A DNA stretch of 64,000 nucleotides from Candidatus Omnitrophota bacterium (lineage in GTDB: Bacteria > Omnitrophota > Gorgyraeia > Pluralincolimonadales > Pluralincolimonadaceae). The translations under genes and the position numbers were made by a program. The first letter of the stretch is position 1; every line of letters begins with the position of its first letter. The stretch lies in contig JAQUPL010000001.1 in the NCBI GenBank assembly GCA_028716565.1, forward strand, positions 537,476 through 601,475, given 5' to 3'. This document shows positions 4,469 to 32,462 of the stretch, one piece after another. Under the pieces are notes generated by a model. It saw only the letters and a program-made list of their open reading frames with translations, did no database searches and was not told the DNA's origin.

Positions 4469-4488
4469 TTTACCCCTCCTTGCCCGTT

Positions 4489-5709: not shown

Positions 5710-5721
5710 AGTTTGGGACGG

Positions 5722-5880
5722 TTATACCTTTTCGAACATATCCTTCGGTGCGCCGCACTCGGGGCAAACCCAATTATCGGGAAGTTTATCAAAAGGCGTC
5801 CCTGCGGAGATACTTGCGGTAGGATCGCCTATAGCCGGATCGTATATGTACCCGCATACCGTACAACGATATTTGTCCAT
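5722..5880 (-). CDS. rd: rubredoxin (52 aa; absent from the supplied ORF track because it is <60 aa)
   Basis: Reverse-strand translation [52 protein letters not shown] has two CxxCG knuckles in the classic rubredoxin fold pattern. It sits 3 nt downstream of the FDP gene. Confidence 0.85.
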
Positions 5881-5883
5881 TGT

Positions 5884-7080: not shown

Positions 7081-7081
7081 T

Positions 7082-17419: not shown

Positions 17420-19156
17420 TTACTGGAGGCCGGGGACGATTTCCCTGAGTTTCCTGGCGGCGAATTCCTCTATTTCGGTGCCGGTCGAGAAAGCAAGGGC
17501 CTCATTCGCTATTTTCTGGGCGGCTTTATATTCTACCGACCTTATTATCTGCTTGATCCTCGGGATATTGACCGGGCTTGTTGAGAACTCATCGAGGCCG
17601 AAACCGAGCAAAAGCAGCGCGAAAGCCGGATCTCCGGCCATCTCGCCGCACATCCCTACCCATATATCCGCCTTATGACCTATATCTATGACGCTCTTTA
17701 TCAGCCTCAGGACGGCCGGATGCGCCGGCTCGTAAAGATACGCGATCTTTTCATTGACCCTGTCGACGGCCAGCGAATATTGTATCAGGTCGTTCGTCCC
17801 TATTGAAAAGAAATCCACTTCCTTGGCGAGTATATCCGCGGTCATCGCCGCCGAGGGCACCTCGATCATCGCGCCCACCTCGACGTTCTGGTCGAACGGG
17901 ACGTTCTCCCTCCTGAGCTCGTCTTTCATCTCGCCAAGCAGCTTGTTCGCCTCGCGCAGTTCTTCGACTCCCGAGATCATGGGATACATTATCTTGAGTT
18001 TGCCGTGCGCCGAGGCCCTCAATATCGCCCTGAGCTGCACCTTGAAGATATCCGGCCGGGCGAGGCAGAACCTTATCGCCCTCCACCCCATGAACGGGTT
18101 CATCTCTTTGGCTATTTTCAACTGGGACATGAATTTATCGCCGCCGAGGTCGAGGGTCCTTATGATCACGGAATCCGGCGACATCTGTTCCGCGACATTC
18201 TTATAGGCCGCGTATTGCTCTTCTTCGGTGGGAAGCTCGGTGTGTTCAAGATAAAAAAATTCGGTCCTGTAAAGCCCGATGCCGTTCGCGCCGTGCGACT
18301 TTACCGACGGCATCTCATCCGGTATCTCGATATTGGCTGAAAGGTGCACTTGGCGCCCGTCGCGCGTCACGCAAGGCAGGTCGCGCAGGTGCGTCAGCGA
18401 GGCGTCGAATTCGGCGATCTTGGTCTTCGCCTGTTCGTATTTCGCGAGCGTCTCCTGGTCCGGGTCGGTGATCACCAGCCCGTTCGAACCGTCTACGATT
18501 ATCGTATCGCCGCTCTTTACGCTCTTAGTGACGTTCTTGAGCCCGACGACAGCCGGTATCTCGAGCGCCTTCGCCATGATGGCGGTATGGGATGTCTTGC
18601 CGCCTATATCCGTAGCAAAAGCTATGACATTCTTCTTATGGAGGGAAGCCGTGTCCGACGGCGAAAGGTCATAAGCTATCACGATGACTTTCTCGCCTAT
18701 ATCCGCGAGCGTCTCGCGTTTCTTGCCCAACAGGTGGAGCAGGACCCTCTTTCCGATATCGCGGATGTCCGCGACGCGCTCCTTGAGGTATTCGTCCTCG
18801 ACCTTCTGGAACGCGCTTATATACCTCTTGACGACATCGTCGAATATATACTCGACGCACACGAGGTCTTTCTTTAGCCTGGCTATGACCTCCTCGATAA
18901 GCGTGCGGTCCTCGAGCACCAGGAGGTGGGCGTTGAAGATCTCGGCGTGTTTTATTCCCAGTTGTTCGGATATGCGTTCCTGGATGCCCAGTATCTCCTG
19001 CCTCGTCTGGATAAGGGCGTCCTCAAAGCGCGCGATCTCGCGGGGCAGGTCCTTCTCCGGGATCTCCCTCTTTATAACGGTATAGGCCTCGCTGTCTAAT
19101 ATAAAGACCTTGCCTATAGCGACACCGGGCGAAGCCGGTATGCCTTTAAGCAGCAT
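17420..19156 (-). CDS. ptsI: phosphoenolpyruvate-protein phosphotransferase (PTS enzyme I)
   Basis: N-terminal LKGIPASPGVAIGKVFIL, phospho-His region GGKTSHTAIMAKALEIPAVVG, C-terminal PEP-utilising domain. 578 aa. Confidence 0.9.
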   Translation of the reverse strand: MLLKGIPASPGVAIGKVFILDSEAYTVIKREIPEKDLPREIARFEDALIQTRQEILGIQERISEQLGIKHAEIFNAHLLVLEDRTLIEEVIARLKKDLVCVEYIFDDVVKRYISAFQKVEDEYLKERVADIRDIGKRVLLHLLGKKRETLADIGEKVIVIAYDLSPSDTASLHKKNVIAFATDIGGKTSHTAIMAKALEIPAVVGLKNVTKSVKSGDTIIVDGSNGLVITDPDQETLAKYEQAKTKIAEFDASLTHLRDLPCVTRDGRQVHLSANIEIPDEMPSVKSHGANGIGLYRTEFFYLEHTELPTEEEQYAAYKNVAEQMSPDSVIIRTLDLGGDKFMSQLKIAKEMNPFMGWRAIRFCLARPDIFKVQLRAILRASAHGKLKIMYPMISGVEELREANKLLGEMKDELRRENVPFDQNVEVGAMIEVPSAAMTADILAKEVDFFSIGTNDLIQYSLAVDRVNEKIAYLYEPAHPAVLRLIKSVIDIGHKADIWVGMCGEMAGDPAFALLLLGFGLDEFSTSPVNIPRIKQIIRSVEYKAAQKIANEALAFSTGTEIEEFAARKLREIVPGLQ

Positions 19157-19415
19157 CGATTTCTCCTGCCAGGACCTGTTCGAGTTCGAGCATGGCCTTT
19201 TCTGCGTCCTCCCCGTCGACCTTCAGGGTGACCTGGGCGCCTTTTCCGGCCGCGAGCATGAGTATGCCCATGATAGACTTGCCGTTGACTTCAAGCTTGC
19301 CCTTTTTCACGACGACTTCCGAGTCGTATTTATTCGCAATCTGCACAAATATCGCGGCAGGCCTGGCGTGAAGCCCCGATTTGTTCTTTATGGTTATCTT
19401 CTTCTCTGTTATCAT
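19146..19415 (-). CDS. ptsH: phosphocarrier protein HPr
   Basis: KNKSGLHARPAA active-site His15 context. 89 aa. Confidence 0.85.
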   Translation of the reverse strand: MITEKKITIKNKSGLHARPAAIFVQIANKYDSEVVVKKGKLEVNGKSIMGILMLAAGKGAQVTLKVDGEDAEKAMLELEQVLAGEIDAA

Positions 19416-19416
19416 C

Positions 19417-21417
19417 TCATTCCTCTATTTTGATATTTTTTGTGATCTTCACGCCCCATGCCGCCCCCGGCGCGAGCTTGAACTTCCAATGGAACAGGAC
19501 CGAAAGCTCCTGGTAAGTCCTTTCCAGCCCCTGCTCCGAATCCGATACCGTCTCTACCGGGAAATACCAGAGATCCGCGGCCTTCGAGATCTCAAAATCT
19601 ATTTTTACTCCGTACCACTGGTCGTTGACGTTTATGTTCGTCAGCCCGTGGGCCTCGCCCGCCTTGTTCAGGTGCGGGTCCTTCAGCGAATAATTGAATT
19701 CCACCCCGAACCACGGTTCGAACTCCCTCGTATCGAGGCTCGTTATCTTATATTCGATTTCCATATCCTGGCTGTCCGGCTTGACGCTTATGCGCTTGGC
19801 GACCCTTAATTTATACGCGTCGCCGGAGGCGCCGTAATAATTGCCGTCGCGTGTAAGTTCGACCGCGATACCCTTCGGCCTCGCCTCTTTCTTTATGCCA
19901 TATTTATATTCGCCGCCCAGGAAATCCCCGGCTTCGCCGTATTTGCACTCCGAGAAATCCTTCACGGTCGTGCCTTCCTTAAGGAAGTGGTCCAGCAGCG
20001 ACACGCGCCTGTAAGAATCGTAGCTTAAGTCGGCGACGAGCTCGGCGTCCTTCTGCCTCGAAATATCGTGTATCGAGTCTATGCCGCCGTCTTTCTTTCC
20101 CGTGTCGCGCGCCTTCGCCTTCTCCAGCGCCTTGTCGTGGTACGGTTCCCTGCGCCTTGCCAGCGTGTTCGTCATGTTCAGCGCGAGAGGCTTAAAATCC
20201 AGCTCAAAGAGCGTGCCGCCGTTGTGCGGCGAAAGATCGAGCTCCAGCTTTGAATTCGATATCAACACTTCATCATATGAATCGCAGTCGAGATCCGTCT
20301 CTACCGACTCGATCCAGTTGGTGTCACTGTGCGCGGCCTTATCGAGTTCCTTCTGCGCCTTTATCAGGTTCGAATAGACTGCCGAGCGCAGGTGGTTCAG
20401 GTAGAGCCCGCCGAAAACCCCGTGCCAGTAGGCGCAATTGCACTGGCCCTTATAAAGGTACTCCAGCGCCTTCTTCGACTTGGCTCCGGCCACCAGCCCG
20501 CTCACGAACTGCATCTTCTTCTGCATGCTGTTCGCTTCGGGATACTTCACTAAAAAATTCTTGAAATAACCGCCGCTCCACTCCATCATCTCGCGGTAAC
20601 TCGCGCACGTCAGGTATATCCTGCCGGTCGGACCGTTCTCTTTTATATATTCGGAGAAGGTCGTCGTCTTAAGCCATCCCGACTCTTTCTCAAGCGCGCC
20701 GAGGAAATTCTCGAGCCATTTCTCCTCGTAGACCCACTTGTATGTCCCGGGCCAGACGCCGAATTTCTCGCCGTCGTCGGCGAATATCTTCGAGGAGCAG
20801 CCCTTCTCTTTCTGCTGCCCCATGTAATCGATCGTTTCCTGCGGCAGCTTGAACGGCATCATATACCTTAATCTTTCCGAGCCGGGGAATATGAATAATT
20901 TCTCCCCCTCGTCCTCAGTCACATAATATCCCGAAAGGCCGTCCGGCTTCTGCCCTACATAAGTAAAATGCCAGTCATCTACTATCGCGAACTTTATGCC
21001 TGCCTTCGCCAGGGGCTTTATGAGCGTCGGCTCCCATACCCTCTCGGTCAGCCATACGCCGTTCGCCCGGTATCCGGTGAAGCCCCTTATCTTCTCGTTC
21101 ATAAGCTTTACCTGGCCGAGGATATCGCGCTCGGGTATGAGCGTCAGTATCGGCTCATAATAACCGCCCGAGAGCATCTCGACCTGACCGCGCCCTACCA
21201 TCTCTTTCAGCATCTTGATGAACTCGGGATGCTTCGCGGCTATCCAGTCGAGCAGGCAGCCGGAATAATGCAGGGCCGCCTTAAGCCGCGGGTGCCGGTA
21301 AAGCGATTCCAAAAAAGGCAAATATGACTTCTCGTATGCCTCGGCGAATACCCACTCGAAATTCCCGTCAGGCTGGTGGGAATGTATCGCCAGTAAAAGA
21401 TCGATCTTCTGCGGCAT
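19417..21417 (-). CDS. glycoside hydrolase family 57 protein (4-alpha-glucanotransferase / alpha-amylase type)
   Basis: LLLAIHSHQPDGNF...GQVEMLSGGYYEPIL are GH57 signature regions. 666 aa. Confidence 0.75.
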   Translation of the reverse strand: MPQKIDLLLAIHSHQPDGNFEWVFAEAYEKSYLPFLESLYRHPRLKAALHYSGCLLDWIAAKHPEFIKMLKEMVGRGQVEMLSGGYYEPILTLIPERDILGQVKLMNEKIRGFTGYRANGVWLTERVWEPTLIKPLAKAGIKFAIVDDWHFTYVGQKPDGLSGYYVTEDEGEKLFIFPGSERLRYMMPFKLPQETIDYMGQQKEKGCSSKIFADDGEKFGVWPGTYKWVYEEKWLENFLGALEKESGWLKTTTFSEYIKENGPTGRIYLTCASYREMMEWSGGYFKNFLVKYPEANSMQKKMQFVSGLVAGAKSKKALEYLYKGQCNCAYWHGVFGGLYLNHLRSAVYSNLIKAQKELDKAAHSDTNWIESVETDLDCDSYDEVLISNSKLELDLSPHNGGTLFELDFKPLALNMTNTLARRREPYHDKALEKAKARDTGKKDGGIDSIHDISRQKDAELVADLSYDSYRRVSLLDHFLKEGTTVKDFSECKYGEAGDFLGGEYKYGIKKEARPKGIAVELTRDGNYYGASGDAYKLRVAKRISVKPDSQDMEIEYKITSLDTREFEPWFGVEFNYSLKDPHLNKAGEAHGLTNINVNDQWYGVKIDFEISKAADLWYFPVETVSDSEQGLERTYQELSVLFHWKFKLAPGAAWGVKITKNIKIEE

Positions 21418-22682
21418 CAGAAACTTGTCCCCTTTACCTCATATACCAGCTCGAATATCCTTTTCGAGATCTTGTCGGCGTTGTGCCTGACGAAATCGTC
21501 GACGGTTATCATGTCGCCTTCGACCACGCCAAGGCCCATCTCGCGTATCTTCTTTATGTCCGCCTCGACGGGATACGCCCCTTCGATCTTGTATTTATCC
21601 AAAAAGTGCTGGGGTATCTTCGCCGTATTAACGAATACGTAATCTGCAAGACCGCTGTTGGTATGCCTCAACAGCGCCTCGACATGGTCCGAGGCCGCGA
21701 ACCCGTCGGTCTCGCCGCGTTGTGTCATCACATTGCAAAGGTAGATCTTTACGCCCTTGGATTTCAGTATGCTCTCGACCACGCCTTCCACCAGGAGATT
21801 AGGCAGTATGCTCGTATAAAGACTGCCCGGCCCGATCACGATCGCGTCGGCCTCTCTCAAGGCGATAAGCGCCTCCGGGGTCGCTTTCGCGCCGGCAGGA
21901 TTGAGATATAACCTTTTTATCCGGCTCACGGCCCCGGTGACCTTCGGGATAGTGCTTTCGCCCGAGGTCTGCGTCCCGTCTTCGCGCTTGGCGGTCAGCG
22001 TCACTTTCTCAAGGGTTGACGGCACCACGCTCCCGCGTATCGCGAGGACCTTGCTCGATTCTTTTATCGCTTTCTCGAAATCGCCGGTTATCTTTGAAAG
22101 GGCGGTAATAAAAAGGTTCCCGAAACTGTGGCCCTTCAGGCCCTCGCCCTCGGTAAAACGGTATTGGAAAAGGTCCCTCATCAGCACTTCGGCGTCCGAG
22201 AGTGCGATCAGGCAGTTGCGTATGTCCCCGGGCGGCAGGACGTCGAATTCATTCCTTATCCTCCCGGAGCTTCCCCCGTCATCGGCAACCGTGACAATCG
22301 CCGTGATATTCGACGTCATCTCTTTGAGGCCGTGCAGCAGGACAGCCAGGCCCGTGCCGCCGCCTATCACCGCTATCTTCGGCCCTTTGGAGAGGGCCCT
22401 CTGCCTGAACATGATATCCAGCAGGTCCTTCTCGCGGCGCGGCAAAAAGACGGTCACGAAAGACTTGACCATCTTGCGCATGCCGATGATCATCAATATA
22501 ACTCCGAGCACAAAGAGCAACGTCCCGAAGACGAGGAGGTTCGCCTTGTGGGTATACATATATTTCACGTAGCCGAACCACAGGAACCCGGCCGCGAACA
22601 TGACCGCGAGTATCCCGACGGAAAAGAGGAATATCCACCTCTTTATCCTCATACCAGGATATAACCACTTGAACCAGCGCAT
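21417..22682 (-). CDS. YvcK/CofD-like gluconeogenesis factor (UPF0052) with N-terminal ~90-aa transmembrane extension
   Basis: IAVIGGGTGLAVLLHGLK...VTVADDGGSSGRIRNEFDVLPPGDIRNCL core. N-terminal 2-3 predicted TM helices (WIFLFSVGILAVMFAAGFLWF...LLVFGTLLFVLGVILMIIG). Confidence 0.75.
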   Translation of the reverse strand: MRWFKWLYPGMRIKRWIFLFSVGILAVMFAAGFLWFGYVKYMYTHKANLLVFGTLLFVLGVILMIIGMRKMVKSFVTVFLPRREKDLLDIMFRQRALSKGPKIAVIGGGTGLAVLLHGLKEMTSNITAIVTVADDGGSSGRIRNEFDVLPPGDIRNCLIALSDAEVLMRDLFQYRFTEGEGLKGHSFGNLFITALSKITGDFEKAIKESSKVLAIRGSVVPSTLEKVTLTAKREDGTQTSGESTIPKVTGAVSRIKRLYLNPAGAKATPEALIALREADAIVIGPGSLYTSILPNLLVEGVVESILKSKGVKIYLCNVMTQRGETDGFAASDHVEALLRHTNSGLADYVFVNTAKIPQHFLDKYKIEGAYPVEADIKKIREMGLGVVEGDMITVDDFVRHNADKISKRIFELVYEVKGTSF

Positions 22683-22756
22683 TCTATTACCCTTTTTTTA
22701 ACGATTTATTATCTAAAAAAATTATGGCGTTTTTTACTGCCGGGCTTTTGGAACGA

Positions 22757-23221
22757 TCAATGGCGTTTCGTGTCTTCGTCTTCGATCAGCCTAAGGATGC
22801 TCTTCTCATCTTTGCATTGCCTGAGGGCATCGCGGAAGGGCCTGTCCTTCAGAAGGCGTGATATCCTGGCCAATGCTTTAAGGTGAGGGCCCGCGGAATC
22901 TTGCGGCGCTACGAGAAGGAAGAAGATATGCACCGGTTCGCCGTCGAGCGAATCGAAATTGACGCCTTTGGGCGAGAGCGCGAACGCGGCGGTCAATTCC
23001 TTCACGCCGTCGTATTTGCCATGGGGGATACCTACGCCCTGGCCTATCCCGGTCGAGCCAAGCGCCTCGCGGCTAAGGAGTATCTTCACCAGCTTCTCCT
23101 TCTCCTTAAGCGACCCGGCCTTGGCCAGCAGGTCGACCAGCTCCTTGACGGTTTCTTCCTTGTCCTTCGCCTGAAGATCGGCGGTCACAGCATCCTGGTT
23201 GAGAAAATCCATTATCTTCAT
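22757..23221 (-). CDS. ptsN: PTS EIIA (fructose/mannitol/Ntr type), PtsN-like nitrogen regulatory IIA
   Basis: GIGQGVGIPHGK phosphorylation-site motif. 154 aa. No EIIB/EIIC nearby. Confidence 0.7.
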   Translation of the reverse strand: MKIMDFLNQDAVTADLQAKDKEETVKELVDLLAKAGSLKEKEKLVKILLSREALGSTGIGQGVGIPHGKYDGVKELTAAFALSPKGVNFDSLDGEPVHIFFLLVAPQDSAGPHLKALARISRLLKDRPFRDALRQCKDEKSILRLIEDEDTKRH

Positions 23222-23250
23222 TACGGCTTCCTCCTATTGACGTTAGAAAA

Positions 23251-23326
23251 TGGAGCGGGTGAACGGGATCGAACCGTCGACAACTACCTTGGCAAGGTAG
23301 CGCTCTACCAGCTGAGCTACACCCGC
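23251..23326 (-). tRNA. tRNA-Gly (anticodon GCC), CCA encoded
   Basis: Reverse complement GCGGGTGTAGCTCAGCTGGTAGAGCGCTACCTTGCCAAGGTAG...GGTTCGATCCCGTTCACCCGCTCCA folds as a cloverleaf. Anticodon loop TTGCCAA. Confidence 0.85.
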
Positions 23327-23350
23327 GTTATCTTCAACTTCCCAATGAAC

Positions 23351-23435
23351 TGGTGCGCGGAAGAGGGTTTGAACCTCCACGGGTTTCCCCAATAGCTCCT
23401 AAGGCTATCGCGTCTGCCAGTTCCGCCATCCGCGC
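23351..23435 (-). tRNA. tRNA-Leu (anticodon TAG), long variable arm, CCA encoded
   Basis: Reverse complement GCGCGGATGGCGGAACTGGCAGACGCGATAGCCTTAGGAGCTAT...GGTTCAAACCCTCTTCCGCGCACCA. Anticodon loop CTTAGGA. Confidence 0.8.
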
Positions 23436-23454
23436 GGAGACAAAAACGGCACTA

Positions 23455-23530
23455 TGGTGAGCCGCGAAGGACTCGAACCTTCAACCAACAGATTAAGAGT
23501 CTGCTGCTCTACCGATTGAGCTAGCGGCCC
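23455..23530 (-). tRNA. tRNA-Lys (anticodon CTT), CCA encoded
   Basis: Reverse complement GGGCCGCTAGCTCAATCGGTAGAGCAGCAGACTCTTAATCTGTTG...GGTTCGAGTCCTTCGCGGCTCACCA. Anticodon loop CTCTTAA. Confidence 0.85.
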
Positions 23531-23595
23531 GAATTTAGAGAACACATTTTAACAGAATTCCCTGCGCAGGTCAACCAAAAACAGGGTGGAATTGT

Positions 23596-23649
23596 GGTGA
23601 CAGTATACTTAATTATTTGGTTAATTCGGGAATTAAGTATACTGTCACC
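23596..23649. repeat. perfect 19-bp inverted repeat (GGTGACAGTATACTTAATT / AATTAAGTATACTGTCACC) with 16-nt loop; copy A of a GGTGACAG...CTGTCACC element family
   Basis: Read directly from the sequence. Lies between tRNA-Lys and the 3' end of the 23657-24421 gene. Related copies at 26160-26244 and 30440-30507. Confidence 0.8.
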
Positions 23650-23656
23650 GAAATTA

Positions 23657-24421
23657 TTACCATGGGAACTTCAGGCCGGCCTCGACCTTTGATTCCTCGG
23701 CAAGGCGCTTGAACCGGAGGAATGCTTCCCCACCCAGGAGTTTCCTTGAGAGGGTCGCGCTCATTCCGACCCTCTGGCCGCGGGTGTCGGTAAACTCGAA
23801 CTCCAGGGAGGTCCGTTTATTGAGACTATATCTCAACAACCCGAAAAATTTTATGACTTTTTCAATCGGCCTCTTCCTCTGGGATACGCCGATGCCGATA
23901 CGGTATACGAGCTTTCCCAGGCGCCCGGTGACGCCGGAATCCTCAAACTGCGCCCTGAATAAAAATCCGGATTCGCCGCTCGTATCGAGCATGTATGCGA
24001 TCTTGTCCCTGCCGGTCAACCGCCACGCGCCGTTAAAAACGAGGATGCGCTCCTTTTTCGTCTTGCGGACCAGGTCTGTCTTTTTATACCTGTATAATAT
24101 CCGGTTATCGTCGCCTATCTCCCAGGCGCCGTCGAAGACGAGGATATCGCGCCTCCCGTCTTCCTTCGAGACGGCGAACGACAAGCGGTTATCCTCGTCG
24201 GCCTGCCATTTGCCTTTTAATTTAAGGATGCTCGCGACATCGACATTCCTCTCCTTCTTCGATGTCACGATGCAGGTAAGCTCATCGGAGGAGATGCCGG
24301 CCAGGTCGGCCCTCATGCTGAGGACTTCCCTGCCGTAAGGGTCCGTAGTGTCGGTGACGACCAGTTCCAGGTCGTGGTTACTGTTGAGGCGCCACCGGCT
24401 TTTCTGTTTTAATGAGGGCAT
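23657..24421 (-). CDS. hypothetical protein with tandem ~20-aa internal repeats (start uncertain; overlaps upstream gene by 44 nt if 24421)
   Basis: Repeated ILVFDGAWEIGDDNRILYRY / ILVFNGAWRLTGRDKIAYML units. No family recognised. Confidence 0.4.
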   Translation of the reverse strand: MPSLKQKSRWRLNSNHDLELVVTDTTDPYGREVLSMRADLAGISSDELTCIVTSKKERNVDVASILKLKGKWQADEDNRLSFAVSKEDGRRDILVFDGAWEIGDDNRILYRYKKTDLVRKTKKERILVFNGAWRLTGRDKIAYMLDTSGESGFLFRAQFEDSGVTGRLGKLVYRIGIGVSQRKRPIEKVIKFFGLLRYSLNKRTSLEFEFTDTRGQRVGMSATLSRKLLGGEAFLRFKRLAEESKVEAGLKFPW

Positions 24422-25451
24422 ACCGTGGATCCAGTTTTTCGAGGAACTTCAGGCTGTATGTCCTGAAGAAAACGGCGAACGGCAGGTTAAGCGCCATAAG
24501 GCAATATAACAAAAAGAGGCAGACCGGAGTCAATACCACGCCGAAGAATATCCAGTAAGGCAGGATCGCGATGCCCGGGACCGTTTTTTGGATAAACCAC
24601 AGCACTAAGACCACCAAGGCTACCGGTATCGCTACGATGATGAAGCCGGCAATAAAAGCCAAAATATAGGCTATGCCCGCGGCGATGCCGAGCCCCATTT
24701 TAATCAAAATATAGACGATGAGATTCCCGGCATTCCTTTTCACGAGTGCCCAGGCCTTGCCCCACGCGGCGAGGACGCGTATCCTCTCCTTATACATTAT
24801 CGGGATGACAAGGTCCACCGTTATAAGCGCGACTATTCCGGTTATGATGAAAAGTATAGATCCGATGATAAGGGCCGGCAGCAGCATCATGATGATCTCA
24901 AGCACCTGCTTCGGGGTCGGGTCGGAGACGTTGATAAGCCCCGATCTTACCAGGGCCGCGACGACGAGATATGCCAAAAACCCTAATATCGCGAGGAAGG
25001 CCGCGGTAAAGACGAGGTTGAAACGGAAAAATGAGTTCCCCGCGTCCGCGTTCGCGCCGAAAGGCGCCTTGATAGAAGCGTCGTTCTTGATGACGTCCTC
25101 CAGGAATACGAAGGAGAACCGCGAGCACAGCCACATCAATACCAGCGCCACCGCGATAATGATGACGGCTATGACCGCGACGACCGCTATTATTATACCT
25201 GTCTCTTCCGCCGACGGGGCGCAGGACTGGGCGCTGCTGCCCGGCTTGCGCTCGGCGGACTCCTGCTGTTCCTGCTTCTGCTCGTAATGGCTGCCGTTCC
25301 CGCCTGAATTAAGATTGCACCCGTGCGACATCGCGCCGGCCATGATCGCGATAAAAGCAAGGACCATCCATTTCTTGAAATTGAAAGGCTTGAAGAGGAC
25401 CTGTTTTGTCCATTCCGCGGATCCGCCGATTATCGCGCCGAAGTCGACCAT
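24378..25451 (-). CDS. hypothetical polytopic membrane protein
   Basis: 357 aa. Low-complexity N-terminal region followed by ~7 hydrophobic helices. No family recognised. Confidence 0.4.
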   Translation of the reverse strand: MVDFGAIIGGSAEWTKQVLFKPFNFKKWMVLAFIAIMAGAMSHGCNLNSGGNGSHYEQKQEQQESAERKPGSSAQSCAPSAEETGIIIAVVAVIAVIIIAVALVLMWLCSRFSFVFLEDVIKNDASIKAPFGANADAGNSFFRFNLVFTAAFLAILGFLAYLVVAALVRSGLINVSDPTPKQVLEIIMMLLPALIIGSILFIITGIVALITVDLVIPIMYKERIRVLAAWGKAWALVKRNAGNLIVYILIKMGLGIAAGIAYILAFIAGFIIVAIPVALVVLVLWFIQKTVPGIAILPYWIFFGVVLTPVCLFLLYCLMALNLPFAVFFRTYSLKFLEKLDPRYALIKTEKPVAPQQ

Positions 25452-25460
25452 TTTTCCCCC

Positions 25461-25742
25461 TTACCTGGAATAGTGTTTTAAATACCTTTGGAACTCTCTG
25501 CCGCTCAGGTACCCGTCATGGTTCGCGTCGAATTTTTTCTGGTTGGTCGTCGTAACTTTGACCGTGACATAGTTACTAAGCTTGTCTTCCCTTATCATCC
25601 GGCTCTCTTCTGCCGCGCTTTGCCTTCTCAGCGGACTGGCAGTTTGAGTCGTATCTGTATTGAGGCGCTTGTTCACCTCTGTCTGGGAATACGCCGCCGG
25701 GAAAAATAGTAACGCGATAATTATTGCGGTGATCATCCTCAT
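25461..25742 (-). CDS. small secreted protein with EF-hand-like calcium-binding loop
   Basis: Signal peptide MRMITAIIIALLFFPAAYS. DANHDGYLSGRE fits the canonical 12-residue EF-hand loop DxNxDGx(I/L)xxxE. Confidence 0.45.
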   Translation of the reverse strand: MRMITAIIIALLFFPAAYSQTEVNKRLNTDTTQTASPLRRQSAAEESRMIREDKLSNYVTVKVTTTNQKKFDANHDGYLSGREFQRYLKHYSR

Positions 25743-25954
25743 TTCATCGCCTGTTTCTTCGCCTTCCGGACTTTATATCGTTTATAGAATACCAACCCGG
25801 TGTGGACGCATGCCAGGACAAATGTCGCGGCGCCCAAGTGCGCGTGTATCTCATAATTTATCCCGGTGACCCCGAGCACCGCGGTCACGGCAAGACAGAT
25901 AAATGCCGCAATACCGGTATATATTATCCAGTCGTATAACTTAAACATTCGCAA
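25739..25954 (-). CDS. small membrane protein (2 TM), hypothetical
   Basis: 71 aa with two hydrophobic helices and a basic C-terminus. Start overlaps the downstream gene (ATGA). Confidence 0.3.
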   Translation of the reverse strand: MRMFKLYDWIIYTGIAAFICLAVTAVLGVTGINYEIHAHLGAATFVLACVHTGLVFYKRYKVRKAKKQAMK

Positions 25955-25983
25955 CCTCCTTCTTTCCAGTTGGTTATATTCTA

Positions 25984-25992
25984 TGGTATAAT
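25984..25992 (+). promoter_or_regulatory. extended -10 element TGGTATAAT positioned 6 nt upstream of the exosortase ATG (leaderless-type architecture)
   Basis: tggtataat-agcatt-ATG read from sequence. The identical 9-mer plus 6-nt spacing recurs at 30513-30530. Confidence 0.35.
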
Positions 25993-25998
25993 AGCATT

Positions 25999-26856
25999 AT
26001 GGTCAACATTATAATTTGGGTATTGGTCGCGGGGCTCTATTCGCCGGTCATCTCCCAGCTTTACAGGGCGCGATGGGAAAGCATCGACTACACCCATGCC
26101 TATTTCATCCTCCCCGTCTTCTTCGCCTTCCTCTTCTTCAAACGAAAAGAACTGAAAAATTCGGTGACAGCTTCTCTAATTCCCGCTTATGGGCGTAATG
26201 AATTAGGTAGCTGTCACCGAATTAAGTATGCTGTCACCGGAATTATCATTTTGGTCGCCGGCCTGCTGATGTTCATATTCGGATGGAAGTGGGATTACCT
26301 GATGATAACCTCGGGCTCGATGATACCGGTGCTTTTCGGGCTGGTTTTGTACCTCTACGGCCCGTCTACGGCGAAAATAACGGCATTCCCGATATTATAC
26401 CTGTTATTGCTCGTCCCGCCGCCGCTCGGCATCCTTGACTCGATAACGATGCCCATGCGCTACGGAATCTCCATCGCGACGGAGCACATCTTAAAGGCCT
26501 TCAGCATCCCGATAATCCGCGACGGGCTGATGCTCACCGTCGGCGGCCACGAGGTCTACATGGGCGCGCCGTGCAGCGGTTTCCGCTCGCTCATAACGAT
26601 GTTCTCTCTCGCCCTCGCCTACGTCTATTTCATAAACGCGCGCCTGCGGAACAAAGTGATCCTCGTCATCTCGGTCGTCCCGCTCGCCCTGCTCGGTAAC
26701 CTCATCCGCGTGACAGGGATGTGCCTCGTCACCTATAAATTCGGCGAGGAGACCGGGCACAAATTCCACGACACTAGCGGCCTCGTGATATTCGTCGTGC
26801 TCATTCTCGGCCTGCTGGGGATAGAGTCGCTTCTCGAAAAGAGAGCCAAGAAATGA
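25999..26856 (+). CDS. exosortase (EpsH/XrtA-like transpeptidase of the PEP-CTERM system)
   Basis: N-terminal W..ID.THAYFILPVFFAFLFFKRKEL motif. Catalytic triad contexts MGAPCSGFRSL (Cys), LGNLIRV (Arg), KFHDTSG (His). ~8 TM helices. 285 aa. Confidence 0.75.
   Translation: MVNIIIWVLVAGLYSPVISQLYRARWESIDYTHAYFILPVFFAFLFFKRKELKNSVTASLIPAYGRNELGSCHRIKYAVTGIIILVAGLLMFIFGWKWDYLMITSGSMIPVLFGLVLYLYGPSTAKITAFPILYLLLLVPPPLGILDSITMPMRYGISIATEHILKAFSIPIIRDGLMLTVGGHEVYMGAPCSGFRSLITMFSLALAYVYFINARLRNKVILVISVVPLALLGNLIRVTGMCLVTYKFGEETGHKFHDTSGLVIFVVLILGLLGIESLLEKRAKK
26160..26244. repeat. copy B of the GGTGACAG...CTGTCACC palindromic element, located inside (in frame with) the exosortase ORF
   Basis: ttcGGTGACAGCTTCTCTAATTCCCGCttatgggcgtaatgAATTAGGTAGCTGTCACCgaattaagtatgCTGTCACCggaatt. 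About 85 % identical to copy C over ~65 nt. Tail matches copy A arms. Confidence 0.75.
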
Positions 26857-27512
26857 ATAACAAAAAATCAATTATAGCTATTATCCTTATATGCCTTACG
26901 ATGCTCGTAAGCTTCGCCCTGCCCAGGCCGAAATACACAAGCCCGGACGTCCTCTCAAAGCTCGAGATACCGGCAAGTTTCGGCGCCTGGCACTCTCGTG
27001 ACGCATCCTCGCAGATCCAGACAGGCGGCGATGTCTATAATTTCGTGAGCCGCGTCTTCGCCCGCGAATACGCTCGGCCCGCATACATTTCCCTGCTCGA
27101 TAAGGGCTACGAGGGACTGCTCTTCCTCATCCTGGACGCCGGAAATTTCCACAATCCGAAAGTCTGCTACGGCAGCTCCGGCTACAAGACAACGGACCTC
27201 CCGGATATCGAATTCGACGCCAACGGCCATAGATTCAAGGCGTCGGCCGTCTTCTTCGACAGGCCAGGCAAAAGCGTCGTGATCACTTATTGGATAGTCA
27301 TAGATAAGAAACAGGCGGGCTGGGGCCAGCAGAAGATCATCGAGCTCTGGTCGTCTTTATTAGGAAAGAAAAAGGTAGGATTTATGTGCCGGATCGACAT
27401 CCCGGCCACGGCAGATACGACAGACAAAGCCGTCAATCTCGCGAAAAGCTTCATCTCCGCTATCGCCCCGCTCCTCCCTCAAGACCAGGCGGAATATCTC
27501 TTCGGCAAATAA
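26853..27512 (+). CDS. exosortase-associated EpsI-family protein (DUF3485-like)
   Basis: 219 aa. N-terminal TM anchor then periplasmic domain. Start overlaps the exosortase stop (ATGA), the usual EpsH-EpsI arrangement. Confidence 0.5.
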   Translation: MNNKKSIIAIILICLTMLVSFALPRPKYTSPDVLSKLEIPASFGAWHSRDASSQIQTGGDVYNFVSRVFAREYARPAYISLLDKGYEGLLFLILDAGNFHNPKVCYGSSGYKTTDLPDIEFDANGHRFKASAVFFDRPGKSVVITYWIVIDKKQAGWGQQKIIELWSSLLGKKKVGFMCRIDIPATADTTDKAVNLAKSFISAIAPLLPQDQAEYLFGK

Positions 27513-27562
27513 AAGGGGACGTTTCAAAAAGGGCTACATGAAACGTCCCCGAATTTACTCGC

Positions 27563-28231
27563 TTATTTCCTGCGCAATCTCCTTACAGCCAGCGTCGCGC
27601 CACCGAGAAGGAATAACACCGAACTTACCGGCTCGGGAACGGCGGATACGTGCATATCATCAAACATCGCGCTTCCACTGCCTGTGCCGTCTGCCTTGAC
27701 TTCCCAGACAAAAGTTCCCTTAACTATTCCGGAACCGTAACTCGAGGGCGTGAGAACGGTCGAGCTGTGCATCCAGTCATCACTGATCAGATCATCCGCC
27801 TGAAGATGTTCAGATGACGCTGTGCCGACTATCGTATCCGAAGAATTTTTGAATTCTATCCTCAGCCACGCGTATACGTCTCCGGTCAAGGGATCGCCGC
27901 TCGGCTGGAATATCCAACCACCTACATTCAACGGCTGGTTAGGATCGGTGATCGCAAAATCCTGCCACGCGCCGCCGCTTGTGCCTGCTTCTCCCCATGA
28001 CCATGCATGAATCGAATAACTGCTTCCGTCATGGCCCCAATTGTTAATATTATAAGCATAGTCGTGGCCGTAATTCGTCCAACTCGTCCATCCCGAAATA
28101 CTGCCTGTCTCAAACCCCGGATTGCTCAATGCATTTGTATCGGCATACGCCGGCGCTGCGGCAAGTGCCAAAAATAGCACCGCCATCACCATTTTTTTCA
28201 TGCTCTCACCCCACTGTTGTTTTTTCCTCAA
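27563..28231 (-). CDS. PEP-CTERM sorting-domain protein with CBM4/9-like carbohydrate-binding jelly-roll module (probable true start MKKMVMAVLF at 28201)
   Basis: C-terminus VPEPVSSVLFLLGGATLAVRRLRRK (PEP motif, TM helix, Arg-rich tail). NPGFETGSISGWT resembles the start of CBM_4_9 modules. Signal peptide present. Confidence 0.7.
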   Translation of the reverse strand: MRKKQQWGESMKKMVMAVLFLALAAAPAYADTNALSNPGFETGSISGWTSWTNYGHDYAYNINNWGHDGSSYSIHAWSWGEAGTSGGAWQDFAITDPNQPLNVGGWIFQPSGDPLTGDVYAWLRIEFKNSSDTIVGTASSEHLQADDLISDDWMHSSTVLTPSSYGSGIVKGTFVWEVKADGTGSGSAMFDDMHVSAVPEPVSSVLFLLGGATLAVRRLRRK

Positions 28232-28239
28232 CCCGAAAT

Positions 28240-28959
28240 CTATTTCCTGCGCAATCTCCTTACAGCGAGAGTCGCGCCGCCCAATATAAATAGAACTGTC
28301 GAAACCGGCTCGGGAACCGCGGTCGCGGTCGCGGAAACGTTATCGAACAGTGTGTAATCATAATGGTATCCCTCGTCCATCGCCCCGATGCCGACAAAAT
28401 ACGAACCTGCGCCCGACATCGTCGAGCTGTCATGCGACCACACAGGCGACGAATCCTGGTAAAAAGCCCATTGCGAGTTGTCGAACGTCAAATTGTAATT
28501 TTTCCAGTTGAACGACGGCTGGTTTGACCAATCGATCTCGCTGACAAACGTCCCGCTGTCTTCGAAACGGAGCTTACTGGAAGCCGCTTCGTAAGAAACT
28601 TTAAAATATTTTGAAGGGTCGACGCTGCTGAAGATCGCCAACTCACTTGACTGCGTCGGGGTCGGATACAGCGTATAGCTTCCGGCGAACACGCTTCCCG
28701 AGAAATTCACCTGGCCCTGCGCCGCGAAAGCCGACGAATAAAGATAGGCGTAACCGCTGTTGACAAGGTTATAATTAACATAACCGTCCGGTGAGATCCC
28801 GGCATAGTTACCTTCTCCCGAAGTAACGACAGTCCAATTCGTCCCTATCGTATTAGCGCTGAAATCGTCGCTGAATACGGTGACGTCCGCGAACGCTGAG
28901 GGATAAATAAACATCCCGATAATAACCGCGAAAATAAGTTTTTTCATAAAGGGAAACAC
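28240..28959 (-). CDS. PEP-CTERM sorting-domain protein
   Basis: Signal peptide. C-terminus AVPEPVSTVLFILGGATLAVRRLRRK. Confidence 0.7.
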   Translation of the reverse strand: MFPFMKKLIFAVIIGMFIYPSAFADVTVFSDDFSANTIGTNWTVVTSGEGNYAGISPDGYVNYNLVNSGYAYLYSSAFAAQGQVNFSGSVFAGSYTLYPTPTQSSELAIFSSVDPSKYFKVSYEAASSKLRFEDSGTFVSEIDWSNQPSFNWKNYNLTFDNSQWAFYQDSSPVWSHDSSTMSGAGSYFVGIGAMDEGYHYDYTLFDNVSATATAVPEPVSTVLFILGGATLAVRRLRRK

Positions 28960-29685
28960 TTATTTAGTTTTTCTGCGCAGGCGTCTTACCGCCAGCGTCG
29001 CGCCGCCGAGCAAAAACAACACGGTTGAAACCGGCTCGGGAACGGCAGTTACATCCAGTTTCGCCACCGAAAAATCACTCCAGATTGAAGGAATTCCCTC
29101 AGGAACATAGAATACGATCTTGTCGATAAGATAAGGGGTATCATAAACGTAATCGACTATGCCGTTACCTCCATCACCTATATACTCCTGCGCCAGCAAT
29201 GTCTGGGTAAAAAAGTTTTCTCCCTCATAGAAAAATTTCACCGCGCCCTTCTCCCGCTCGATGGGCCAGCAAAAGATCTTGTCATCATAGAAGAGCGACC
29301 TAACCTGAAAGGAATTGAGTTCGGTCGGCGCGTTAAACTTTATAACAAGTCTCTCCGATCCGCCGCACAGGGGGTTGTCGATCTCATCGTCTTCGCCGCC
29401 TAATATGCCAAGGCCCCGCGTCCCGCGATGCGTCAATATTCCCGGATTGCTCGGAATGTCACTATCCCAAGCCTTGACTACACCATAACCGCCCAATAAG
29501 CTCCAGCTGTTTTCTCCGAGGGAAAGGGAAGCGTCGCTATTCGACCATCCGCTTGTGTCCCCGTCAACACCCTGCAGCGTTTCCCCTACGCTTGGGTCCC
29601 AGATAAAGCTTACCTGGTCGGCGCTAGCCAGGCCGGCCACCGTCAAAAACAGGCATATCATTACAACAAAGTAGATTTTCTTCAT
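28960..29685 (-). CDS. PEP-CTERM sorting-domain protein
   Basis: Signal peptide. C-terminus AVPEPVSTVLFLLGGATLAVRRLRRKTK. Confidence 0.7.
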   Translation of the reverse strand: MKKIYFVVMICLFLTVAGLASADQVSFIWDPSVGETLQGVDGDTSGWSNSDASLSLGENSWSLLGGYGVVKAWDSDIPSNPGILTHRGTRGLGILGGEDDEIDNPLCGGSERLVIKFNAPTELNSFQVRSLFYDDKIFCWPIEREKGAVKFFYEGENFFTQTLLAQEYIGDGGNGIVDYVYDTPYLIDKIVFYVPEGIPSIWSDFSVAKLDVTAVPEPVSTVLFLLGGATLAVRRLRRKTK

Positions 29686-30233
29686 GCTTTTCCTTTTTTT
29701 CCCATCCTGCGTAGTAATAGCATAGAACCACCCGCCACAAACAATATCGAAGCCACCGGTTCGGGTATCGCAACGGGGTCGCCGCCGCCCAAATCATGCC
29801 AATTTTGATCGCTGCCTATGAATTCCGGCCAGGTCCACCAATCAGCTTCCGTATAAGTCAGGATCTGCCTCTGGACGACCTGCCCGTTTAAGGATGTCTG
29901 ATAAAGAAATTGGGTCGCGCGCGCCGGCTCGGCATTATCAAAATTCAGATAAAACCTCAGCCAGTCTGAATCCGGGCCTATGGCATACGCTTCGGTACTT
30001 GAAACAGTGAAGTTTTGCCAGTTGGAATCGGTAAAATTGGTGAAGGTAGGGGTCGCAAATGTATCATCCGCCTGCCAGAAGATCTGCATCTGATCGAATG
30101 CCCCAACATTATGCCCCTGATATTGTTCCGTGCTCGACTGCTGGAATAACTGGTTCCATGTGCTGGCTGAAGCCGTACCGGCAGCAAGCATCGTTAAAGC
30201 CGCGACAAATATTACCACAAAAATCTTCTTCAT
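29682..30233 (-). CDS. PEP-CTERM sorting-domain protein (divergent tail)
   Basis: Signal peptide. C-terminus AIPEPVASILFVAGGSMLLLRRMGKKGKA. Confidence 0.65.
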   Translation of the reverse strand: MKKIFVVIFVAALTMLAAGTASASTWNQLFQQSSTEQYQGHNVGAFDQMQIFWQADDTFATPTFTNFTDSNWQNFTVSSTEAYAIGPDSDWLRFYLNFDNAEPARATQFLYQTSLNGQVVQRQILTYTEADWWTWPEFIGSDQNWHDLGGGDPVAIPEPVASILFVAGGSMLLLRRMGKKGKA

Positions 30234-30439
30234 TTTGCAACCCTACCTCATTCAAATAAGTTAATATTATCCCTTATTAAGAGTATGAAATAACACGGAA
30301 TTTCGTCAGGAAGGTGTCATTCAAAGCAACGTGGTTATTCTAACAGATACTAAGATTTTGTCAACTGAAATAATTGCGATTTTTATAGCATTATCTTGCG
30401 GCCTATAGTCGGGAGAAATCTACCGGTAACAGTTTCACT

Positions 30440-30507
30440 GGAATTCGGTGGCAGCTTCTCTAATTCCCGCTATTAGTCGTAGTGAATTAGGTAGCTGCCT
30501 CCGAATT
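30440..30507. repeat. copy C of the GGTGACAG...CTGTCACC-type palindromic element, directly abutting the promoter of the GH5-like gene
   Basis: ggaattcGGTGGCAGCTTCTCTAATTCCCGCtattagtcgtagtgAATTAGGTAGCTGCCTCCgaattc is homologous to copy B. Confidence 0.7.
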
Positions 30508-30512
30508 CAATG

Positions 30513-30521
30513 TGGTATAAT
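30513..30521 (+). promoter_or_regulatory. extended -10 element TGGTATAAT, 6 nt upstream of the ATG at 30528 (same architecture as the exosortase promoter)
   Basis: tgtggtataat-tatgac-ATG read from sequence. Confidence 0.35.
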
Positions 30522-30527
30522 TATGAC

Positions 30528-32462
30528 ATGCGTTACTTAATTTTAGCTTTGGTTTTAGCGGGGGTCGTTGGCGTAGCCCACGCCGAAGAAGGCTGGTTCC
30601 CTTTCTCTTATGGTAAGGATCTTGATTCCAATTCTCTTCTAAATATGGGCAAGCTCGTTCTCGACCCACCTGCAGGCAAACACGGTTTTGCAAAGGCTGC
30701 GGGAAATCATTTTGTCTTTGAAGATGGAACTCCAACGCGCTTTTTCGGTACAAATTTATATTTTGAAGCATGCTTTCCCACACATAAACAAGCAGAAATA
30801 ATAGCTGAACGCTTGGCTTTCTTCGGTTTTAATGCTGTCCGTCTACATCATATGGATTTCTATTTTGAACCTAAAGGCATTTTTGAAGATATTTGTCCAG
30901 CTTTTAAAAACCCTCAAATGAAAAAAACTGGTATCTTAAGTAAGAAGCAGCTTGAAAGACTTGATTATTTAATTTATCAATTGAAAATACGAGGCATCTA
31001 TGTTGATTTGAATTTGCTTGTCGGAAGACATTTTACTGAAGCTGATGGTGTAAAGGACGCGGATAAACTTGTTTTGGCAGCAAAACCTGCTTCCGTGTTT
31101 GACGAGAAGCTTATTGCGCTTCAAAAACAGTACACCAAAGATTTATTAACTCACTATAACCCTTATACAAAACTTCGCTATTATGAAGAACCGGCAATTG
31201 CACTTATCGAGATAACCAATGAAAATTCTCTATTAGATTCTTGGTATGACGACAAACTTAATGGCGATATGCCGGGCTTCAAAACAAATCCAATTCCTGT
31301 ATATTATTCCAAGGAGCTCAACAAATTATGGAATATTTGGCTTCAAGATAAATATAAAACTGTCGAAGCAGTAAAGACCAGTTGGCTGTCTATCTCTTGT
31401 TTCAACGATGTATCAAAATTTGATTTTCAAATACCTGTACATAAACTCAGAGCGTTGGTCTCCAAAAAATGTCTTGATGATTTTCGCTCTTTTCTTATTT
31501 CGCTTGAAAAACGTTACTTTTCAATCATGCTAAATTTACTAAAGAGCGAAATAAAGATAAAGGTACCAATAACAGGAATAGGCGGGTGTTCAAACGTTGA
31601 GGAATTAGAAGCACAAGAACAATGCGATTTTCTCGATAAGCATGCCTATTGGGATCATCCGCGTTTTCCACATAAAACATGGGACCAGAATGATTTCACC
31701 ATTAAAAATAACTCAATACTCCAAAACGCCTCGTTCGGGATGATGGAAAATATAGATAAATTCAACTTGCGTAAAAAGCCTTTCACCGTTACAGAGTGGA
31801 ATCACTGTTATCCCAACAAATATGCGTACGAAACACCACCCCTTATGGGTGCATATGCAGTAAAGAATGATTGGTCAGGAATTTTTCAATACGCACTTAC
31901 CCGAGGTTGGCAATTCGATCCTGTCTACGACGTGATTTCCAGCTATTTTGATACTTTTGCAAACGCACAACAACTCAGCCTTAGCGCGATAGGAAGTTTT
32001 ATTGTGCAACGTTGTCCGGATATTAACGTTGTAGTAAATAATGATTCTGCTACTTTTGAATCGGATTTTCTTTGCGGGGTTACCGGCTTTATCGGTGGTA
32101 AAGAATTCCACATTAGAAATCTCACCGTTAATTCAGATAAAAACGGGTCAATATTTATTTATTCTCCTGATCTAAAAGAGATTGGTTCTGCAAAAACACT
32201 AATTTGCTTGGTTGTTGGCGAGATTAAAAACGAGGATAGTCAGTGGGACTCACAAAAAATGTTTAATTGGGGAATTAAAAAGACTGTACTGAGCGCGATT
32301 AATGCGAAAATTGGGATTGGATCATTCCGTCCCGGAATAGTGTATGCACTTGACAATCAAGGAAAAAGATCGCGCATAATTCCATCGAGCTATATCTCTG
32401 ATAAGCTGGTTTTTACGACTAACAAAGCAGATACCCTCTGGTATGAAATCTCGTTAAAATAA
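30528..32462 (+). CDS. secreted clan GH-A (GH5-like) glycoside hydrolase (track ORF starts at 30510, but the ATG at 30528 gives signal peptide MRYLILALVLAGVVGVAHA)
   Basis: FFGFNAVRLHHMD and IALIEITNENS (NE acid/base motif) are typical of (beta/alpha)8 clan GH-A enzymes. AT-rich codon usage. Confidence 0.5.
   Translation: MRYLILALVLAGVVGVAHAEEGWFPFSYGKDLDSNSLLNMGKLVLDPPAGKHGFAKAAGNHFVFEDGTPTRFFGTNLYFEACFPTHKQAEIIAERLAFFGFNAVRLHHMDFYFEPKGIFEDICPAFKNPQMKKTGILSKKQLERLDYLIYQLKIRGIYVDLNLLVGRHFTEADGVKDADKLVLAAKPASVFDEKLIALQKQYTKDLLTHYNPYTKLRYYEEPAIALIEITNENSLLDSWYDDKLNGDMPGFKTNPIPVYYSKELNKLWNIWLQDKYKTVEAVKTSWLSISCFNDVSKFDFQIPVHKLRALVSKKCLDDFRSFLISLEKRYFSIMLNLLKSEIKIKVPITGIGGCSNVEELEAQEQCDFLDKHAYWDHPRFPHKTWDQNDFTIKNNSILQNASFGMMENIDKFNLRKKPFTVTEWNHCYPNKYAYETPPLMGAYAVKNDWSGIFQYALTRGWQFDPVYDVISSYFDTFANAQQLSLSAIGSFIVQRCPDINVVVNNDSATFESDFLCGVTGFIGGKEFHIRNLTVNSDKNGSIFIYSPDLKEIGSAKTLICLVVGEIKNEDSQWDSQKMFNWGIKKTVLSAINAKIGIGSFRPGIVYALDNQGKRSRIIPSSYISDKLVFTTNKADTLWYEISLK

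Follow-up and report, generated by a model that had tools for sequence, protein, structure and literature searches.

A palindromic repeat read in frame in the TM2-TM3 loop of an Omnitrophota exosortase, a likely passenger of the Y1-transposase kind

Introduction

Why should an exosortase gene contain a palindromic repeat that is translated together with the rest of the protein, and does this repeat do anything there? The question is raised by a locus of a Candidatus Omnitrophota metagenome-assembled genome (MAG), located in a stretch of 64,000 nucleotides that is referred to here as the window. The exosortase gene of this stretch (EpsH family; protein record NCBI MDD5546096.1) contains a long imperfect palindrome followed by a third core arm, which we call copy B, and further copies of the same repeat family (copies A and C) are found in the same window. 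We consider it likely that copy B is a palindromic repeat of the type associated with Y1 transposases, fixed in a permissive loop between the second and third transmembrane helices (TM2 and TM3), that it was retained subject to keeping the frame open, and that it has no function of its own.

Results

The palindrome is translated within an intact exosortase

A first-pass annotation of the window had described a palindromic element inside the exosortase gene that introduces neither a stop codon nor a frameshift, and this description holds: the open reading frame (ORF) continues through copy B to its normal end. The element consists, in order, of AATTCGGTGACAGC TTCTCTAATTC CCGCTTATGGGCGTAAT GAATTAGGTA GCTGTCACCGAATT AAGTAT GCTGTCACCGGAATT and contributes the peptide NSVTASLIPAYGRNELGSCHRIKYAVTGI. 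Five of its six frames contain stops; the exosortase uses the sixth, which is open. The 12-mer of its left core, TTCGGTGACAGC, occurs five times in the window with at most one mismatch, versus 0.19 occurrences expected, and none of 100 shuffled sequences reached five. Over 66 nt, copy B matches copy C at 88% identity (E = 4.5e-13; 85% over 73 nt), so that their resemblance is not the coincidental one, below 70% identity, that the first-pass annotation had allowed for, and their cores differ by one compensatory change from A-T to G-C. The RNA fold of copy B has an energy of -36.2 kcal/mol (z = -5.1). Together, the excess of the 12-mer, the identity between copies B and C and the strong fold argue that the element is no chance match. 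The coordinates of all features are collected in Table 1.

Table 1. Repeat copies, half-sites and genes of the exosortase locus, in window coordinates.
Feature	Position	Strand	Description
Copy A	23590..23655	.	Intergenic; 25-nt arms 92% complementary; fold z -8.2
Exosortase (EpsH-family) gene, host of copy B	25999..26856	+	ORF intact, 285 aa
Copy B, palindromic repeat read in frame	26158..26244	+	87 nt; residues 54-82 (N54-I82)
Left core half-site of copy B, TTCGGTGACAGC	26160..26171	+	Exact match; encodes SVTA
Right core half-site of copy B, GCTGTCACCGAA	26210..26221	-	Encodes SCHRI; pairs with left core
Extra third half-site of copy B, GCTGTCACCGGA	26230..26241	-	Encodes AVTG; similar to right arm of copy A
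EpsI partner gene	26853..27512	+	TIGR02914, 53 bits (cutoff 42.8); PF11984; overlaps exosortase stop
Four genes with C-terminal PEP-CTERM-like signal	27563..30233	-	VPEPVS...LAVRRLRRK, from translations; shared 89-nt repeat D1
Degenerate extra half-site upstream of copy C, CCGGTAACAGT	30423..30433	+	
Copy C	30442..30507	+	Intergenic, between divergent PEP-CTERM operon and GH42-like gene; fold z -6.8

The host protein is a regular exosortase in all other respects. Its ORF matches Pfam PF09721 with an E value of 6e-52 and 176.9 bits (cutoff 25.7) and exceeds the cutoff of TIGR02602 (121.7 versus 105.55 bits), while the profiles of the exosortase subtypes (XrtB, XrtV, XrtA and others) all remained below their cutoffs on this protein. 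The protein keeps the residues of all 59 columns that are invariant in a 39-sequence alignment, among them C192 (in the PCSGFRS motif), R196, N234, R237 and H257. To place the segment in the protein, we used an AlphaFold (AF2) model based on the same alignment, with a mean predicted local distance difference test (pLDDT) score of 83.7 and a predicted template modeling (pTM) score of 0.73. In this model, the helices at residues 32-60 (TM2) and 68-97 (TM3) run on through the element-encoded residues and are joined by a turn at residues 61-67, which puts the segment into the second loop and not into the first, as had been annotated. The tip of this loop (residues 61-70) has the lowest confidence of the chain (pLDDT of 56). 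Given the charges of the loop (K48, R49, K50, K53, R65, R73 and K75 versus E51 and E67), the positive-inside rule predicts that it is probably cytoplasmic, with the conserved W-ESIDYTH loop and the Cys/Arg/His face on the opposite side. A sequence search of the PDB returned no solved relative, so this topology rests on the AF2 model and the positive-inside rule.

One might suspect that a repeat was collapsed or chimerically joined into the gene during assembly. The contig of a second, sister MAG (GCA_028711645.1) does break inside the element, at window position 26225, as assemblers do at repeats. However, this contig is 99.86% identical to window positions 19016-26225 over 7210 nt and thus holds, in an independent assembly, the left junction and the main hairpin of copy B in identical form. 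Moreover, a 91% identical protein (P0001) contains the same 29-aa segment with two residues changed and is called as a full-length 285-aa product on nine contigs from several ENA samples, and both the frame and the downstream protein are perfectly kept. Because of the independent MAG and the nine contigs of P0001, we regard an assembly artefact as very unlikely.

Copy B takes the place of an older loop

Comparison with orthologs shows the segment to be an insertion or, more precisely, a replacement. The closest ortholog without the element, P0002 (locus L001), is 89% identical over the alignment and has a loop that is 10 aa shorter and contains another small hairpin; P0005 to P0008 also lack the segment, and no ortholog outside the species-level cluster of the window protein carries an equivalent one. 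At the DNA level, window and L001 are 91.4% identical over positions 25999-26150 and 94.7% identical over positions 26251-26400, versus 30% over the loop in between (26151-26250), and the window is 30 nt longer. This pattern of length and identity indicates that the element replaces a loop of 18 to 19 aa rather than interrupting it. The 27 to 28 extra residues of the first-pass annotation thereby reduce to a net gain of 10 aa over the nearest orthologs (285 versus 275 aa).

The same loop holds unrelated palindromes in other exosortases

Between TM2 (YFILPVFFAFLFFKRK) and TM3 (LMFIFGW), not one column of the 39-sequence alignment is conserved, and the connecting stretch ranges from about 8 to more than 50 residues and differs in length and sequence in 38 of 38 homologs. 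All five close orthologs examined at the DNA level have some palindrome in it. The L001 loop reads GGTCCCTCCGCAGAGGGAGACACC, with no second copy seen, and that of L002 reads AGTCCCACCGCAGTGGGAAAT, with a second, intergenic copy at L002 6556, the positional equivalent of copy A. The stems of these two differ by a compensatory pair, and both hairpins are weak (-15.7 and -13.8 kcal/mol, respectively), no better than control windows of the same gene; no hairpin of their type is present in the window. P0003 (L205) has a different long palindrome, with -46 kcal/mol over a 117-nt stretch and no second copy seen, while the P0012 (L204) loop, TCATTCCCGCGAAGGCGGGAATCC, has a second, intergenic copy at L204 4548. 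Back-translation of the P0004 loop peptide, KKSVTAYLSPGKLSILSPY, points to a hairpin similar to copy A. Strong palindromes (-40 to -78 kcal/mol) are also found in the loops of the more distant loci L143, L140, L150/153 and L185, where the L143 repeat occurs in unrelated bacteria as well and the L185 insert recurs nearby.

To put these cases into perspective, loop statistics were derived for 51 to 60 genes out of 85 loci. Short loops (41) average -0.12 kcal/nt and frequently show less structure than the remaining gene, whereas 5 of 15 long loops reach -0.35 kcal/nt or lower; other long loops consist of tandem repeats (L170) or low-complexity sequence. Since the loops of most distant orthologs are short and show hardly any structure or none, a hairpin at this site is neither ancestral nor required in the exosortase gene. 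The loop is rather a permissive site that tends to carry the resident repeat family of its genome. This agrees with the proposal of the first-pass annotation that the exosortase tolerates a repeat in a loop, given that every invariant residue is intact, and it qualifies the statement that such retention is uncommon: this is true of genes in general, but not of this loop, which captured palindromes repeatedly.

The other proposal of the first-pass annotation, an intragenic regulatory or RNA-structure site, found no support. Here, the structure itself would be functional, as a translational pause that aids membrane insertion of TM1 and TM2, as a roadblock, as an attenuator or as an antisense terminator. 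Such a role could account for a strong fold (-36 kcal/mol, z = -5.1) located just after TM2, for a palindrome in each of the five close orthologs and for the stem on the minus strand being followed by TTTTT. Yet the short loops of distant orthologs are hairpin-free, the L001 and L002 hairpins are on par with the control windows of their gene, the loop families of close orthologs are unrelated in sequence and the same element also stands at unrelated intergenic sites (see below). On the sense strand, the tail after copy B (AAGTATGC) contains no T-run, and a promoter and terminator scan flagged none of the element copies. A scan of positions 23000-31000 with Rfam 15 (E up to 1) assigned no family to copies B or C and gave tRNAs as well as sub-threshold miRNA-like matches on copy A. 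Overall, a dedicated RNA or DNA structure is an improbable explanation.

Similarly improbable is a domesticated peptide, in which the 29 residues would act at the protein level, e.g., by binding a cytoplasmic partner or by contributing to substrate choice. The segment has helical character in the model and differs at only 2 of 29 residues in the P0001 cluster; however, this change of ∼7% is no lower than that of the remaining protein (9%), the segment is missing entirely from the next closest ortholog (89%) and the tip of the segment is the low-confidence part of the model. In addition, the peptide sequence is dictated by the palindrome, with SVTA and SCHRI being the core arms. When peptides from all open frames of copies A, B and C were used in a protein search, the sole match was the same exosortase, truncated by a contig end.

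Several other observations were made on this loop. In P0113 (L170 4734-4961), it has grown by tandem NTNEKARI-like peptide units instead of a palindrome, with L180 being a short version. The loop of L135 to L137 (L135 6176-6200) contains AAAAAAGGGG-TCAGG-CCCCTTTTT, is read in frame (KRGQAPF) and looks like a bidirectional intrinsic terminator. A hairpin GTCATTCCCGCGAA(A/G)GCGGGAAT (peptide VIPAKAGIQ / RESGNP) is located at L143 3517, L204 3167 and 4548, L041 5919 and L120 5591; it is found in loci of both Omnitrophota and Allosphingosinicella and is apparently one more very widespread repeat. Lastly, P0008 combines the N-terminal part and loop of P0005 with the C-terminal substitutions of P0004, which suggests recombination among these three exosortase alleles.

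Further copies lie at unrelated intergenic sites

Copy A shares the family core with copy B but has different inner arms. Its end and the stop codon of a minus-strand ORF (23657-24421) are 2 nt apart; it adjoins a cluster of three tRNAs and is located exactly at a break of synteny with L001. Homology with L001 also stops at window position 30399, just before copy C. A fourth full copy is found in the sister MAG GCA_028711645.1 (L206 4751-4817), ∼5 kb past the end of the window, immediately after an unrelated gene's stop codon, with an Rrf2-family gene downstream of it, and a solo arm follows the stop of another gene at L206 7297. In total, the species has four full copies and one solo arm in ∼74 kb. 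Their location, apart from that of copy B, at unrelated intergenic sites shows that the family is dispersed and not bound to the exosortase locus.

We also considered whether the clustering of three copies within 6.9 kb of the 64 kb (P of ∼0.03 by our calculation) could reflect locus-specific regulation. This idea was rejected, as the fourth copy and the solo arm stand beside unrelated genes.

The surroundings of copy A differ between genomes. In the window, tRNA genes occupy positions 23254-23530 of the minus strand, beside the copy A region (23581-23658). A 5.8-kb pga-like operon (1824-7546; PgaA barrel, deacetylase and glycosyltransferase) is present in L001 at the copy A junction but absent from the window. 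Between the tRNA cluster and a 254-aa gene, the spacer contains an TCCCACCGCAGTGGGA hairpin in L002 (6545-6580) and copy A in the window. This spacer and the exosortase loop, each at an orthologous position in both genomes, thus switched repeat family together.

The repeat family recurs across phyla and adjoins Y1 transposase genes

The family is defined by the 11-nt core (A)ATTCGGTGACAG...CTGTCACCGAAT(T), which is fixed in sequence and lies midway along a longer stem. We scanned one genome per species for TTCGGTGACAGN{20,50}CTGTCACCGAA, i.e., TTCGGTGACAG followed by 20 to 50 nt and CTGTCACCGAA. This yielded at least 120 loci with at least 129 core hairpins over many phyla, where we estimate that ∼1 to 2 matches would be expected by chance (22 fixed bases in 596 Gb). 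The following figures refer to the matches listed. Hosts include Caulobacter, Phenylobacterium, Inquilinus, Rhodospirillales, Bryobacterales and other Acidobacteriota, Gemmatimonadaceae, Aminicenantes, Flavobacteriaceae, Planctomycetota, Armatimonadota and Pseudobdellovibrionaceae, often with core hairpins on several contigs of a genome. In 118 distinct hairpins, ten stem positions within the core pair in 77 to 96% of cases, versus 29 to 71% with shuffled partners, using three to four pair types each, and positions -1 to -3 outside the core covary as well. Hence, pairing, and not sequence alone, is conserved in the family, whose hairpins fold with z values of -5 to -10. An additional direct partial core within 30 nt was found in 16 of 127 hairpins, versus 2 in the inverted control orientation; an added arm such as the third one of copy B is therefore characteristic of the family.

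Genes of the Y1_Tnp family (∼205 to 230 aa) are present in 7 of the 120 loci, each with a core half-site within 70 nt of a gene end and, in L103 and L122, with the core on both sides. The Pfam Y1_Tnp domain was found above its cutoff, while the best NCBIfam match, the REP-associated tyrosine transposase (RAYT; REP, repetitive extragenic palindrome), was below (59 and 74 bits versus a cutoff of 80). In Omnitrophota, the loci L170, L173, L135 to L137 and L128 contain related Y1 genes at a distance of less than 6 kb from the exosortase, flanked by arms with GGGGACAG or GGGACAG. These genes are TIRYT-like and belong to four distinct lineages, at positions 5038-5980 of L135 (also in L136 and L137), 4281-5254 of L128, 3100-3850 of L170 and 451-1098 of L173. 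The exact terminal inverted repeat (TIR) motif GGGGACAG flanks the Y1 genes of L135 and L128, and the last hairpin of L135 ends 20 nt before the exosortase start codon. The family of the window (GGTGACAG) is one base off the TIRYT motif GGGGWSAS and therefore does not match it exactly.

The first-pass annotation had called the element a miniature inverted-repeat transposable element (MITE). The label is imprecise, in view of the tie to Y1 transposases and of missing target-site duplications, of which none is visible around copy B (flanks CTGAAA and ATCATT), copy A or copy C. Terminal inverted repeats, small size and a position at synteny breakpoints would all suit a classical MITE derived from an insertion sequence with a DDE transposase, as would the outcome of a tblastn search, which revealed no Y1 transposase gene in the 64-kb window. 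Still, the conserved core is internal to a longer covarying stem instead of terminal, it abuts Y1 genes at seven independent loci and it is one base from the TIRYT motif (PMC3733652), so that an origin of this kind is improbable.

The exact core TTCGGTGACAG was not found in the searchable literature, which gave only primers and unrelated matches. A rough check of the other core hairpins (at least 129) revealed no convincing copy in frame in the middle of a gene, as their long open frames look spurious and GC rich or lie upstream of the real starts.

Two of the loci have further features. In Deltaproteobacteria bacterium IMCC39146, a toxin-antitoxin pair of the YafQ/RelE type is located between two family hairpins (L010 6811-7556). 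In L122, positions 771-6598 form a near-perfect mirror around 3684, with inverted duplicates of the transposase, cysS and folE and five hairpins; a large inverted duplication and a fold-back misassembly at the hairpin are the two explanations.

Genes and signals around the exosortase

The gene of the EpsI partner overlaps the exosortase stop, showing that the exosortase operon is intact, and the four downstream genes with PEP-CTERM-like signals likely encode exosortase substrates, judging by their translations. Three of these tandem genes share an 89-nt direct repeat (74 to 76% identity; window 27566-29057) that encodes the C-terminal sorting signal. The exosortase start is preceded at 6 nt by an extended -10 box (TG-TATAAT, promoter-like site 10 of 12; window 25963-25999) and lacks a Shine-Dalgarno sequence. 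Upstream of the GH42-like gene, whose start is likely M7 (MRYLIL..., ∼30528), there is a similar TGGTATAAT (window 30511-30528), and both transcripts may be leaderless.

Discussion

We propose that copy B is a nonautonomous repeat of the Y1 kind (IS200-like, RAYT/TIRYT type) that became fixed in the DNA encoding the TM2-TM3 loop. A single-stranded hairpin would have been moved by a Y1-type transposase and would have taken the place of an earlier small hairpin of the L001/L002 type. The mobilization step in this genome is deduced from the Y1-linked loci of other phyla. This copy may have survived because it was in frame and free of stops and because its loop, which carries positive charges and is probably cytoplasmic, lies well away from the catalytic Cys/Arg/His face. 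According to the model, the insert would there merely lengthen the helical hairpin of TM2 and TM3. We regard copy B as a tolerated passenger without a dedicated function.

Several observations weigh against this explanation. The window contains no Y1 transposase gene, and the core is absent from all 82 other Omnitrophota exosortase loci (509 kb). The old loop was replaced, which a simple insertion does not predict. Besides, the lineage of the window and P0004 appear to share the left junction (KRKELK-N/K-SVTA), which could reflect targeting or recombination instead of chance, and the presence of a hairpin in all five close relatives leaves some room for a lineage-specific need for structure.

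A possible, more tentative reading is that the loop is a preferred landing site, in which successive hairpin families insert into, or recombine with, the resident hairpin and so overwrite the loop in place. It would fit the finding that the GGTGACAG family occupies two sites in the window, the exosortase loop and the spacer after the 254-aa gene, and that the TCCCNCCGCAGNGGGA family occupies the two orthologous sites in L002. If true, resident selfish repeats would be a steady source of new peptide in a membrane enzyme, and the locus would expose hairpin-targeted insertion by Y1 transposases, several of which stand next to exosortase genes in Omnitrophota.

Whether or not the site is preferred, the interpretation of copy B as a passenger has practical consequences. 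For annotation, the 29 residues should be treated as repeat derived and not as an exosortase feature, and contig breaks are to be expected at this site. For the study of mobile elements, the locus provides a clean comparison of filled and alternative sites as well as an in-frame copy in a polytopic membrane enzyme. The core TTCGGTGACAG, common to many phyla and tied to TIRYT-like Y1 transposases, is a direct target for in vitro cleavage or binding assays. Finally, the different palindromes in one loop (at least six) represent a natural experiment on how selfish hairpins generate variation in protein length.

Comparison with known systems

A tolerated in-frame palindrome is in itself of a kind already known, and what we describe is mildly novel, going slightly beyond in that at least six different palindromes occupy one loop across orthologs and in that the core is conserved across phyla. 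Like bacterial MITEs such as Correia/NEMIS, RUP, ERIC and Nezha, the family is small and noncoding, has inverted repeats, forms hairpins and is sometimes located in genes. These MITEs derive from DDE-type insertion sequences and make target-site duplications. The family described here differs on both counts, with no target-site duplication visible and a Y1 HUH transposase as the linked enzyme.

The resemblance to TIRtrons is closer. In these elements, Y1 transposases (TIRYT) are flanked by inverted repeats sharing GGGGWSAS, and some of these repeats make up families of moderate abundance (PMC3733652, Di Nocera et al. 2013); TIRYT constitute subclass 2.1 of the TnpA-Y1 superfamily (PMC6006769, Quentin et al. 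2018). Both systems have inverted arms with G(G/T)GACAG that abut Y1 genes of ∼205 to 230 aa, and both are moderately abundant, as single units, dimers or clusters. Unlike in TIR repeats, the core TTCGGTGACAG has GGTG and not GGGG and one copy is intragenic; unlike in a TIRtron, the 64-kb window holds no transposase, the link being drawn from the loci of other genomes. The helix-turn-helix extension that is the hallmark of subclass 2.1 was not detected in the Y1 proteins by Pfam, even at an E value of 5.

With REPs, their paired REPIN forms and RAYTs, the family has in common short hairpins that are mostly extragenic and near the 3' ends of ORFs, and, at its loci in other phyla, a Y1 transposase of the kind that acts on single strands and is accompanied by its own repeats. 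It differs from REPs by the foot of its stem, where the conserved (A)ATTCGGTGACAG stands in place of a GT[AG]G (GTAG/GTGG) or CGTC tag, and by its stem length of up to 25 to 30 bp, and its transposases differ from RAYTs by scoring below the cutoff of the RAYT equivalog model.

Palindromic repeats in frame within intact genes are known from the Rickettsia palindromic elements (RPEs), from intragenic GTAG/CGTC REPs and from REPs inside transposase genes, and they have been explained as insertions in flexible loops (PMC3733652, PMC6006769). Copy B resembles RPEs and intragenic REPs in behavior only: it is an in-frame palindrome that leaves the gene intact and occupies a presumed surface loop or linker. 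In contrast to RPEs, it has an unrelated host and presumably an unrelated sequence, and it resides in a polytopic membrane enzyme, in a loop that several repeat families have filled in orthologs.

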